Shown here one piece after another: positions 57,180 through 60,737 of a stretch of DNA of 64,000 bases. This DNA is from a virus. Made by a program: the position numbers and the translations under genes. Numbering within the stretch: position 1 is the first letter of the stretch; each line of letters opens with the position of its first letter. The notes beneath the pieces were generated by a model. The model was not told the DNA's origin. It saw only the letters and a list, made by a program, of their open reading frames with translations, and ran no database searches. The stretch covers positions 39,273-103,272 of the IMG/VR virus record IMGVR_UViG_3300002835_000068; one strand, written 5' to 3'.

Positions 57180-57497
57180 TTAGTCCTTAAATAGATTGGT
57201 AACTCTTGTTTGTTTTGAGTAATCTTTTGCTGAAAAGAATATTGACTCTGTTTTTGTAACAGGTATGCAGTTTGGAACTGGATTACCATCTGCTCCTGGC
57301 TTCATTCCTCTTTGAACGTAGCCTTCCCAACATGGATCAGCCTTACCTATTGATGAGTCATACATAGCCATAGCAACCTCTGAGTCGTTATCTGAAGAGC
57401 ACACTGGACAGTCTGGACAGTCTACATTGAGTTGTTTACAGGTCTCACAGTCGCATCCTTGGTATGTACTTGTTGGCATCATTGAATCATCACTCAT
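57180..57497 (-). CDS. Cys-rich hypothetical protein, leaderless
   Basis: CDCETC..CPDCPVC, CWEGY...VPNC; TGGTATACT, 6 nt, ATG. Confidence 0.65.
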   Translation of the reverse strand: MSDDSMMPTSTYQGCDCETCKQLNVDCPDCPVCSSDNDSEVAMAMYDSSIGKADPCWEGYVQRGMKPGADGNPVPNCIPVTKTESIFFSAKDYSKQTRVTNLFKD

Positions 57498-57515
57498 ACT
57501 ATCAGTATACCATAT

Positions 57516-57782
57516 TTAACTAGCAAGACGGTTATGAGTTCTTATCCTATGGCAGTTGGCACAAACTACTTCGCATTTTTCAATCTCTTTTTTTATAGCC
57601 TTCCATGAAAAACCATCATGGATCATTCTTGATATGTTGTATTTCTTGTCTCTTATGTGATCAAAGTCTAGGATTATATGGTTACCAACACCACAATCTA
57701 CACAGCCAGAATCCTCTTTTATCTTAGCAAGCATCTTCTTATACTGCTGCTTATTATAATGGTCCAACTCTTTGTCAGTCAT
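57516..57782 (-). CDS. HNH endonuclease
   Basis: CVDCG, DFDH, CEVVCANCHRIRT. Confidence 0.85.
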   Translation of the reverse strand: MTDKELDHYNKQQYKKMLAKIKEDSGCVDCGVGNHIILDFDHIRDKKYNISRMIHDGFSWKAIKKEIEKCEVVCANCHRIRTHNRLAS

Positions 57783-57809
57783 TGATATTATTATACCGCC
57801 AAATGTTAG

Positions 57810-57893
57810 GCCCCACACAGGCAATTCACCTGACTTGCGCCACGGTCTCTATCCAATGGGTAACTAATCCATCACTAAGGTCCTGTGTGGGAC
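57810..57893 (-). ncRNA. Candidate 84-nt structured RNA with its own promoter
   Basis: 12-bp terminal stem GUCCCACACAGG/CCUGUGUGGGGC; 5' G lies 7 nt after TGCTACAAT. Confidence 0.55.
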
Positions 57894-57915
57894 AATTATA
57901 TTGTAGCATAGGAAA

Positions 57916-58030
57916 TGAGCAGTTTATAGACGACTGCTCAGGTCTATTAGCCACGAAGATTCAACTCCTGCTAACTCTCCACTCATAGGAGCATCCGTTG
58001 TAAAACCTTTTAAAGTCTTATATCGGAATG
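57916..58030 (-). ncRNA. Candidate ~115-nt multi-stem/pseudoknot RNA with its own -10
   Basis: TATAAT at 58042-58037; stems CAU(U)CCG/CGGAUG, GCUCCU/AGGAGU, UGAGCAGU/ACUGCUCA. Confidence 0.45.
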
Positions 58031-58042
58031 TTATCTATTATA

Positions 58043-58459
58043 CTACTTAATTTTAATAGATTTAGGCTTCTTTTCTTCAGGAACGATACGAACCACATTG
58101 ACATGTAGCATGCCGTCCTTAAGTTCTGCAGATGTTACTTCCATATATTCTCCCAGTGCAAAAGATCTTACGAACTTTCTTCCTGCGATACCCTTGTGGA
58201 CTATCTCTGCATCTGTGACTTCAACAATGTCACCCTTAATAATGAGTGTTCCATTGTCTACGGATACATCAATATCTTCCTTAGAAAACCCAGCGACAGC
58301 AAGTGAAATCTTATATGTATCTTCATCTAGTTTGATAAGATCATACGGAGGATATGATTGTGAGTTTGTTTTATGTGCAGTGTTTAGGCGATTTAACTCT
58401 CTGTTAAAGCCAATAAAAAAAGGATCATTGAACAGATCCATAGCGTACTTTGTTACCAT
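58043..58459 (-). CDS. hsp20: Small heat shock protein (Hsp20/IbpA-like)
   Basis: YPPYD, LAVAGF, HKGIAGRKFVRSF, A.LKDGML, PEEKKP. Confidence 0.95.
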   Translation of the reverse strand: MVTKYAMDLFNDPFFIGFNRELNRLNTAHKTNSQSYPPYDLIKLDEDTYKISLAVAGFSKEDIDVSVDNGTLIIKGDIVEVTDAEIVHKGIAGRKFVRSFALGEYMEVTSAELKDGMLHVNVVRIVPEEKKPKSIKIK

Positions 58460-58524
58460 GTTATTCCCCTTTCAAGCGAATAAGTTAATTACCCCCCATT
58501 TGGGCAGGTAAATATATTATATCA
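58457..58524 (-). promoter_or_regulatory. hsp20 promoter and two-hairpin 5' UTR, ROSE-like thermometer
   Basis: TGATATAAT; UUAUUCGCUU-GAA-AGGGGAAUAA masks the SD with a G.G mismatch. Confidence 0.6.
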
Positions 58525-58832: not shown

Positions 58833-58867
58833 AAACCTTTTATATCCCGCAGGATTTTAGGAAATAT

Positions 58868-59778: not shown

Positions 59779-59784
59779 TAGACC

Positions 59785-60238
59785 TTATTTAATTAGTAAT
59801 CCAAAAAATGTTCCAATTAAAAAGCATAAAAACCCAACTGTCCAATGGTAGTAGGTTTTCATATGTTCTTTAATTATGTGATGCTTTAAATCATCTGGAA
59901 TTTTTTTTAACTTATCGTAATCAACCATAGCACTTCCTAATCTTTATTTAGTTAAGAGTTTAAAGCAGAAAATATGATTCCTTCTCTAATTGACTTTTGC
60001 TTACGCTCAAACCTTGATAGGTATGGCTTAGCCTGTATTCTTTTTTTGTTTTTGTTTGCTCTTTTGATCTTGTGCTGAGATACTTTGTTGTTAGACTTCT
60101 TCATTACTGCCCCTGACTTTCTGATATATTGTCACATGGACAAATAATTGATTCTGGAAGTTCATGAACCTTTGTAACAATAGTGATCATAGTTTCACAT
60201 TCATTACACTTGTATACTTTTTTAATTCGTTTGCTCAT
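59785..60238 (-). other. Three small ORFs: 60104-60238 (Zn ribbon, leaderless), 59952-60104 (basic), 59785-59928 (C-terminal TM)
   Basis: Manually translated; promoter TTGACT-17-TATCAT, 6 nt, ATG at 60238. Confidence 0.55.
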
Positions 60239-60269: not shown

Positions 60270-60737
60270 TCAAGACTTATCTCCATCCCACGTACCAATC
60301 TTAGTAGTAGGAATTTGGTTATCTTCCCATAACCTGATAACATTTGGGTTGTCATCTACCGCATGAAGAACTTTCCAATGATTATTAATCTTGTGAAGTA
60401 TATCTCTTTTAACCTCATAGTCTGGTCTGTTGTCTTCGTCTGATCTCATAAATAAAGCATGAGACCTTAGATTATTTTTTGCAAGCCACATAGATGTTAG
60501 CCCACGCCACTTATCTTTACGAGAAGTTACAATAAGAATAGCATGCTGATCTGCAACAGCATTATTTAACATCTCAACTACTTCCAAATTTGGCAGGGCA
60601 TCTATAGAAGCCTCATGAAAGGCATCGTAGTCCCTATTAGAGCCACGAACATGGTGCAGGTAGGGATCTACATTGGCTAGAGTACCATCTACATCAAATA
60701 TGTAGGCGGTTGGCCTGTTATCAATCTTGATTAACAT
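60270..60737 (-). CDS. HAD phosphatase, like the PseT/PNK 3'-phosphatase domain
   Basis: FDVDGTL, VTSR, MR...D.RPD.EVK, VDDNP. Confidence 0.85.
   Translation of the reverse strand: MLIKIDNRPTAYIFDVDGTLANVDPYLHHVRGSNRDYDAFHEASIDALPNLEVVEMLNNAVADQHAILIVTSRKDKWRGLTSMWLAKNNLRSHALFMRSDEDNRPDYEVKRDILHKINNHWKVLHAVDDNPNVIRLWEDNQIPTTKIGTWDGDKS

Follow-up and report, generated by a model that had tools for sequence, protein, structure and literature searches.

The tRNA region of bacteriophage T4 encodes two stable RNAs, species 1 and 2 (rnaC and rnaD), whose function is unexplained. This region, with RNAs C and D and the endonuclease SegB, is the closest known situation to the one described here, in which a small structured RNA gene of an uncultured phage, designated RNA-1, is followed by the gene of a minimal HNH endonuclease of 88 amino acids. 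In both cases a small, presumably stable, non-tRNA RNA is located in a tRNA island and adjoins a free-standing endonuclease; however, the T4 RNAs have no sequence or structural similarity to RNA-1 and are cut from tRNA precursor transcripts, whereas RNA-1 has its own promoter at +1, and SegB is a GIY-YIG enzyme, whereas the neighbor of RNA-1 is an HNH protein, for which homing is putative. HNH endonucleases are also present in tRNA arrays of the T5 type. In the tRNA arrays of mycobacteria and mycobacteriophages, the HNH endonuclease is the most widespread coding gene (PMC5966550), and the HNH proteins of these actinophage and mycobacterial arrays are 44-60% identical to the 88-aa protein, both adjoining a small structured RNA gene. 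The two situations differ in that the array enzymes adjoin tRNAs, whereas RNA-1 is not a tRNA, and in that the 88-aa protein is cut down, lacking the N-terminal repeats that the long forms have. Furthermore, T4 SegB is a free-standing homing endonuclease of the tRNA cluster that recognizes a conserved tRNA-gene motif and ensures that it and the RNA genes around it are inherited at a rate near 100% (PMC2330249).

RNA-1 was identified in a window of 64,000 nt (the whole stretch of DNA that was analysed) belonging to an IMG/VR record of 103 kb, with a CheckV completeness estimate of 93%. The presence of whiB on this phage genome indicates an actinobacterial host, and the source is probably a whiB-carrying phage of freshwater actinobacteria. 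On the minus strand, the locus reads hsp20, a second small RNA (RNA-2), a mini-pseudoknot motif, a -10 box, RNA-1, a U-rich tail, a TATAAT box, and the HNH gene (Table 1). The hsp20 gene (58459-58043, minus strand) was recognized by a Pfam HSP20 match, a cluster of four tRNAs was placed just upstream of it by ARAGORN, and six true tRNAs were detected in the window by ARAGORN and Rfam. RNA-1 itself is a single copy in the 103-kb genome, without repeats.

Table 1. Features of the RNA-1 locus, listed in the direction of the minus strand (coordinates are those of the window).
Feature	Coordinates	Strand	Basis or remark
Mini-pseudoknot or terminator-like motif GACCUGAGCAGUCGUCUAUAAACUGCUC	57915..57945	-	Ends RNA-2; context only, outside RNA-1
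Extended -10 promoter TGCTACAAT of RNA-1	57900..57908	-	Sequence and conserved box
RNA-1, 84 nt, from G57893 (inferred start) to C57810 (last paired base)	57810..57893	-	Sequence, fold, alignment
P1, 5' strand GUCCCACACAGG	57882..57893	-	Pairs with 57810-57821; covariation
J1/3, junction strand ACCUUAG	57875..57881	-	(Nearly) invariant alignment columns
P3, hairpin UGAUGG/CCAUUG with 9-nt loop AUUAGUUAC	57854..57874	-	93% paired; UAGUUAC invariant
J3/4, AU-rich linker GAUAGAG	57847..57853	-	Sequence and length vary, mostly 4-9 nt
P4, predicted bulged hairpin ACC-G-UGGC, GCAA loop, GUCA-GGU	57828..57846	-	Minimum-energy fold
J4/1, GAAUUG	57822..57827	-	GAAU core conserved
P1, 3' strand CCUGUGUGGGGC	57810..57821	-	Covariation with the P1 5' strand
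Conserved tail CUAACAUUUG (YUAAYAUUU in relatives)	57800..57809	-	Probable weak U-tract terminator after P1
Promoter of the leaderless HNH mRNA, TATAAT + 7 nt	57783..57795	-	Sequence
Minimal HNH endonuclease gene, 88 aa	57516..57782	-	phrog_2255, phrog_3106; ATG at 57782

A closing stem of 12 bp had been proposed from the single sequence, and it is present as 12 contiguous pairs between GUCCCACACAGG and CCUGUGUGGGGC, delimiting an RNA of 84 nt. Across 50 diverse homologues P1 was 93.8% paired, with changes on both sides at 8 of its 12 pairs (e.g., C-G replaced by U-A in 17 sequences), and the covariation score observed in this 50-sequence alignment was matched by none of 500 shuffles. Moreover, sliding the partner strand by 1-3 columns lowered the pairing from 87.6% to 28-46%, and the length of the stem was 11-12 bp in 123 of 133 contexts. 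The orientation had been deduced from one U-G pair, and the bases at 57892 and 57811 indeed form U-G on the minus strand and an A-C mismatch on the plus strand. Among relatives, U-G and G-U wobbles are frequent in P1 and P3 and become A-C mismatches when read on the plus strand; since these pairs fit the minus strand only, the strand is settled. In the same direction, the minus-strand fold reached -33.9 kcal/mol (z = -3.1, equaled by none of 200 shuffles), and the plus-strand fold was poorer (z = -2.0, equaled by 7 of 200).

The expected offset between promoter and 5' end was also confirmed, TGCTACAAT (57908-57900) being followed on the minus strand by the spacer ATAATT (57899-57894) and by the first G of P1 at 57893. 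In 124 of 133 distinct contexts, a TAnnnT box (TACAAT in 89 contexts and TATAAT in 16, often preceded by TGn) comes 4-9 nt ahead of where pairing begins, and it is retained regardless of the sequence further upstream. The same spacing of 6-7 nt between the -10 box and the product was found at tRNA-Ile, tRNA-Met, the leaderless HNH gene, and the following genes of this phage. Transcription would start at G57893, 6 nt past a -10-only promoter, as at the tRNAs and leaderless mRNAs of the phage, and would most likely end just past the 12-bp P1, so that both ends of RNA-1 would be sealed in one helix; the tail CUAACAUUUG is a probable weak U-tract for this termination, and we infer both ends from the sequence. 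A consensus scan for sigma-70 promoters and terminators, which misses -10-only promoters, called no minus-strand terminator at P1. The RNA-1 stretch is present in metatranscriptome assemblies from three studies (freshwater and estuary), as contigs that are possibly DNA-derived and that indicate presence in RNA libraries, neither transcript ends nor levels; in one metatranscriptome run, the assembled contigs left a coverage gap at 57905-57931, to which no meaning is attached.

With respect to the tRNAs themselves, -10-like boxes were observed on the minus strand at the tRNA-Ile cluster (TATAAA, 58833-58850) and at tRNA-Met (TAAATA, 59779-59795), the mature 5' end being only 6-7 nt away in each case, so that the transcripts of these tRNAs may have a very short 5' leader or none. 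Most tRNA genes of the phage lack an encoded CCA (within the cluster, the tRNAs for Ile, Glu, and Arg are without it and tRNA-Gly alone has it), and no gene for a CCA-adding enzyme was found in the phage.

P1 and its tail could terminate transcription, and the element might act in cis, either as the terminator of hsp20 and RNA-2 or as a tRNA-like cut site of a host RNase that separates messages and insulates the leaderless HNH promoter. The hsp20 stop runs directly into the RNA-1 element in most relatives, with no other terminator; the U-rich tail after P1 is conserved, the 11-12 bp of P1 equal the length of a tRNA acceptor and T-stem stack, and the mini-pseudoknot upstream of RNA-1 in the window fits this reading as well. 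However, the "loop" of such a terminator would measure 58-60 nt and contain long invariant stretches, and the RNA-1 promoter is directly ahead. An interior of about 58 nt with many invariant positions far exceeds the needs of a terminator, a conserved promoter with a start at the first base of P1 is needless for a terminator or a cut site, and the element is missing from syntenic phages that still carry hsp20. Consequently, we regard a purely cis-acting element as distinctly unlikely.

As judged from the aligned sequences, the fold of RNA-1 is a three-way junction formed by P1, P3, and P4. The UGAUGG/CCAUUG arm of the original prediction is well founded, its outermost pair being seen as A-U, U-G, G-C, and C-G, with further G-U to G-C changes; the family form of this P3 hairpin is (N)GAUGG / CCAU(U)(N), and the last seven letters of its loop, UAGUUAC, are unchanged. 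An ACCU/AGGU arm, also proposed, was discarded, as it cannot form in most family members, from which AGGU is absent. Of the GAC/GUC arm, the sequence survives as part of P4 but the pairing was mis-registered, and a bulged hairpin reads better. In other family types, the P4 position is occupied by CCG-U-GGC, a hexaloop, and GCC-UGG, and covariation of P4 is weak, almost none. RNAalifold supported P1 and left the interior undecided, because the interior hardly varies; its alternative 2-bp interior pairs (CC/GG) involved invariant columns only and were not adopted. Similarly, a "T-arm-like" GCAA/UUGC helix beside the P1 3' strand was set aside, G57823 being often replaced by A in relatives without compensation. 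A mutual-information scan of alignment A3 for extra tertiary pairs picked up nothing beyond the P1 pairs and the contrasts among family types.

The invariant unpaired ACCUUAG junction and UAGUUAC loop would likely be the surface at which RNA-1 meets a partner, protein or RNA, and in the mechanism that we favor they would contact one defined partner. A small size and invariant nucleotides centered on a junction are also typical of small ribozymes, and RNA-1 might represent a new self-cleaving class. We give this very little credence: no known ribozyme family in Rfam was matched, a start at P1 leaves nothing upstream to cleave off, and the mutual-information scan showed neither a supported pseudoknot nor a cleavage-site signature.

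Around 80 distinct RNA-1 sequences were collected from hundreds of IMG/VR contigs. A 23-nt core of the P3 hairpin was found exactly in >117 viral contigs, and a second search pattern recovered 110 further contigs with diverged versions, counts that are not independent events, most sampled contigs belonging to one phage lineage. Mean identity was 86% for the RNA core, 76% for the HNH DNA, and 58% for HNH third codon positions; the higher conservation of the RNA core relative to the HNH gene indicates purifying selection, and not merely recent spread. The total length among relatives is 79-88 nt and, like that of the J3/4 linker, changes by steps other than multiples of three, and variation is concentrated in compensating stem positions. 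A protein-coding test detected no conserved frame or start codon at the inferred transcript start, which together with the length steps indicates that RNA-1 is non-coding. An AUG-GNN-UAG mini-frame inside P3 was dismissed as a coincidence, as its AUG lies in a stem and the 5' end has no start codon.

For cellular relatives, a pattern scan of one genome per species in 185,579 prokaryote species returned 25 matches, which were coding sequences or chance hits without the closing stem. Among cultured phages, blastn of the locus matched only 56 nt of the HNH gene, and the R2 covariance model found no RNA-1 relative in five complete genomes. RNA-1 appears, from these searches, to be restricted to phages. 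In brief, the standalone minus-strand ncRNA proposed by the original prediction is upheld by the conserved promoter, the covariation, the purifying selection, the non-coding pattern, and, weakly, the metatranscriptome contigs; RNA-1 is well supported as a real, separately promoted, folded RNA gene of uncultured freshwater actinobacterial phages, and it is a new, uncatalogued RNA family. The functions that the original prediction had offered for it (protein decoy, antitoxin mimic, or ribozyme) are candidates only.

That RNA-1 is not a tRNA, as had been stated, agrees with ARAGORN and with Rfam (E up to 10), neither of which gave a tRNA match at RNA-1; at relaxed ARAGORN thresholds (50-70%), none was detected in 8 family members, the calls in mitochondrial mode were inconsistent, and no tmRNA was reported at RNA-1. 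The failure to recognize any family likewise withstood the Rfam check: Rfam 15, whose scope includes hammerhead, twister, pistol, hatchet, HDV-like, pRNA, Y RNA, 6S, and riboswitches, returned only tRNAs over the whole window at gathering thresholds, and at E up to 10 the region 57300-58500 yielded three chance snoRNA/osmY matches, far under threshold. In this context, the Y RNA/YrlA class, which is found in some phages, resembles RNA-1 in that a long stem unites its two ends and a structured module lies opposite; in contrast, RNA-1 has no Rfam match, no bulged Ro-binding helix (P1 is unbulged), and no phage TROVE gene, since a search for a Ro60 (TROVE) gene in the 103-kb genome, with positive controls that worked, was negative. 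Two further likenesses were rejected. The P3 stem and its flanks (GAUGGA...CCAU) are identical to the anticodon stem of tRNA-Arg(UCU), but once stem complementarity is allowed for, several such matches were estimated to arise by chance, and tRNA ancestry was not retained. The GGCUUAG of some relatives presumably resembles the L11-binding hairpin of 23S rRNA and loop E of 5S rRNA; neither the shifting position of the loop nor the additional junction strand agrees with these structures.

These searches also bear on whether RNA-1 is a decoy, mimicking part of a tRNA or a host RNA and soaking up a tRNA-cutting defence nuclease or a tRNA-binding factor. The location in a tRNA island, the tRNA-like promoter layout, and the position directly after tRNA genes in two relatives would suit such a role, as would the polynucleotide-kinase-phosphatase-like gene nearby and the 11-12-bp terminal helix combined with two invariant UUAG-containing loops. 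Nevertheless, tRNA similarity was not detected by Rfam (E up to 10) or by relaxed ARAGORN, and by our own estimate the identity of P3 to the tRNA-Arg anticodon arm is within chance; on this balance, a decoy is very improbable.

Several observations concern the surroundings of RNA-1. The mini-pseudoknot GACCUGAGCAGUCGUCUAUAAACUGCUC immediately precedes the RNA-1 promoter, and its motif, composed of a stem, CCUGRGYA, the stem complement, and UAAACUGCYC, trails hsp20 in nearly all relatives (L028-L065); the first stem covaries, and the window holds one clear copy only. RNA-2 (57946-58030 on the minus strand, extending into 57915-57945) is a second separately promoted small RNA, which begins after TAGTATAAT, a sequence that overlaps the hsp20 stop. 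One of its hairpins shows compensating changes among relatives (GCUCCC..GGGGAG, GUUCCU..AGGAAA, and GGUCG..AGAC), another (GGAG-UUGAAU-CUUC) resembles a tRNA T-arm, and RNA-2 also occurs in relatives without RNA-1 and HNH. In two relatives without RNA-1 (L016 and L069), the slot after RNA-2 is filled by the gene of a secreted PstS-like phosphate-binding protein, as recognized from N-terminal sequence only. The island around RNA-1 is thus hypervariable and made up of cassettes of one gene, every one of which has a -10 box to itself. After the HNH gene lies a leaderless, Cys-rich protein of 105 aa (P0001; 57180-57497, minus strand), with a TATACT box in front, which resembles the C-terminal half of a larger protein at the same position in relatives and had no match to any Pfam family. 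Additionally, a gene with a HAD_PNKP (polynucleotide kinase-phosphatase) domain (60270-60737, minus strand) adjoins the tRNA island and hints at a tRNA or RNA repair capacity of the phage.

The most informative feature of the locus, which the first reading had missed, is the linkage of RNA-1 to the HNH gene, together with the kinship of this HNH to tRNA-array endonucleases. The 88-aa protein consists of the catalytic core only, with intact CxxC...H...N...CxxCH motifs, and matches the middle or C-terminal part of PHROG profiles of 211-252 aa; in all relatives its gene is preceded by the layout TATAAT-N6-8-ATG. An HNH gene of the same family was found downstream of RNA-1 in 141 of 141 distinct contexts, starting about 35 nt after P1 in 134 and separated from it by one gene in 7. 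Upstream of RNA-1, around 30 different sequences were recorded, including the hsp20 stop, RNA-2, other genes, and, twice, a tRNA gene. Of the syntenic loci anchored on hsp20, 35 had both RNA-1 and HNH and 36 had neither; 2 more were discordant, one of which is a truncated contig. When the sample was anchored on HNH, RNA-1 was present in 79 of 79, all of them close relatives. No RNA-1-bearing genome without HNH was seen among the contexts examined.

The linkage persists with long-form HNH proteins of 140-169 aa that are 47-53% identical (L084 and L282). In loci L110, L163, L318, and L327, a gene for a protein of 251-266 aa, which may be thioredoxin-fold or peroxidase-like to judge from the motif VNTTVGCGNANQ...PTNDYCGPG, stands between RNA-1 and HNH, so that the slot accepts a cassette and the linkage is unbroken. 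On a tree of HNH, changes of RNA type numbered about 11, against about 45 with shuffled labels (a short alignment analysed with FastTree, to be given low weight), indicating that inheritance was mostly joint, with some exchange.

The nearest cultured relatives of this HNH are HNH proteins of Streptomyces, Mycobacterium, Gordonia, and Microbacterium phages. Among HNH relatives in nine phage records, seven lie beside tRNA genes, within about 270 nt and six of them within 150 nt (Elmer, Tribute, ArcherS7, Mx1, MeganTheeKilla, TunaTartare, and Vibrio phage D254), the other two being Jera and Malisha. As in a homing cassette, the endonuclease of our locus stands beside a conserved RNA gene and is polymorphic for presence or absence (35 versus 36 loci). 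We therefore favor, with restrained confidence, the view that RNA-1 is a stable, trans-acting RNA of the tRNA island carried by a SegB-like homing HNH. The RNA-1 gene would behave as a member of the phage tRNA/stable-RNA island, and the 88-aa HNH would act like T4 SegB, copying itself and the neighboring RNA gene into related phages. SegB-like homing would explain that RNA-1 and HNH are gained, lost, and kept together; if efficient, it would also account for their joint presence and absence, for the many contexts, and for the fact that RNA-1-bearing genomes always came with HNH. However, if the HNH were purely selfish, some RNA-1 genomes should be without it, and the absolute linkage counts against this explanation.

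In type III toxin-antitoxin systems such as ToxIN, the antitoxin is an RNA of tandem repeats, which the toxin, an endoRNase, processes. A promoter, a structured RNA, a terminator-like stem, and a nuclease gene follow one another in these loci as in the RNA-1 locus, and this likeness is one of the arguments for a functional pair, in which RNA-1 would serve as a scaffold or specificity cofactor of a minimal HNH that would have lost its DNA-binding domain, or as an antitoxin-like inhibitor restraining a non-specific DNase. Such a pair would agree with a linkage that is absolute in both directions, even with the diverged long-form HNH or an inserted gene, and with a protein that is only an HNH catalytic core; the exchange of RNA types hints, moreover, at recombination without loss of linkage. 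Against ToxIN, RNA-1 is a single copy without the tandem repeats of type III antitoxins, its neighbor is an HNH protein of DNase type, and the protein has a separate promoter. HEARO and omega RNAs share with RNA-1 the position of a structured RNA directly upstream of the gene of an HNH-containing protein; yet omega RNAs are >200 nt with a variable guide and IscB has 400-500 aa with RuvC, whereas RNA-1 has 84 nt and no variable single-stranded guide segment, its only variable part being the paired P1, and the 88-aa protein has the HNH only. Furthermore, HNH relatives of cultured phages work without such an RNA (the R2 model found none in five whole genomes), HNH genes of this clade normally adjoin a conserved RNA gene, and near-100% homing alone accounts for the linkage (PMC2330249). 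A functional pair is consequently possible but unlikely, and the stronger claim of a two-part system, with RNA-1 as the missing nucleic-acid-recognition module, or the RNA antitoxin, of the 88-aa HNH, seems to us rather improbable; if true, it would define a minimal HNH nuclease that depends on an RNA or is restrained by one and that has no kinship with IscB/Cas9.

Ever since the work on T4, "extra" stable RNAs with unsolved roles have been recognized in the tRNA islands of phages, and RNA-1 is an abundant, well-defined example of them: it occurs in hundreds of contigs of lake phages, its core is near-invariant, and its predicted fold is a clear three-way junction. Its strict coupling to a nuclease offers two experimental handles, homing or marker exclusion on the one hand and RNA-protein interaction on the other. 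If RNA-1 binds the HNH protein, or a defence or translation factor of the host, it would open a new class among the regulatory or counter-defence RNAs of phages; otherwise, RNA-1 is a clean new family for the catalogue and a marker of a widespread lineage of freshwater actinophages.
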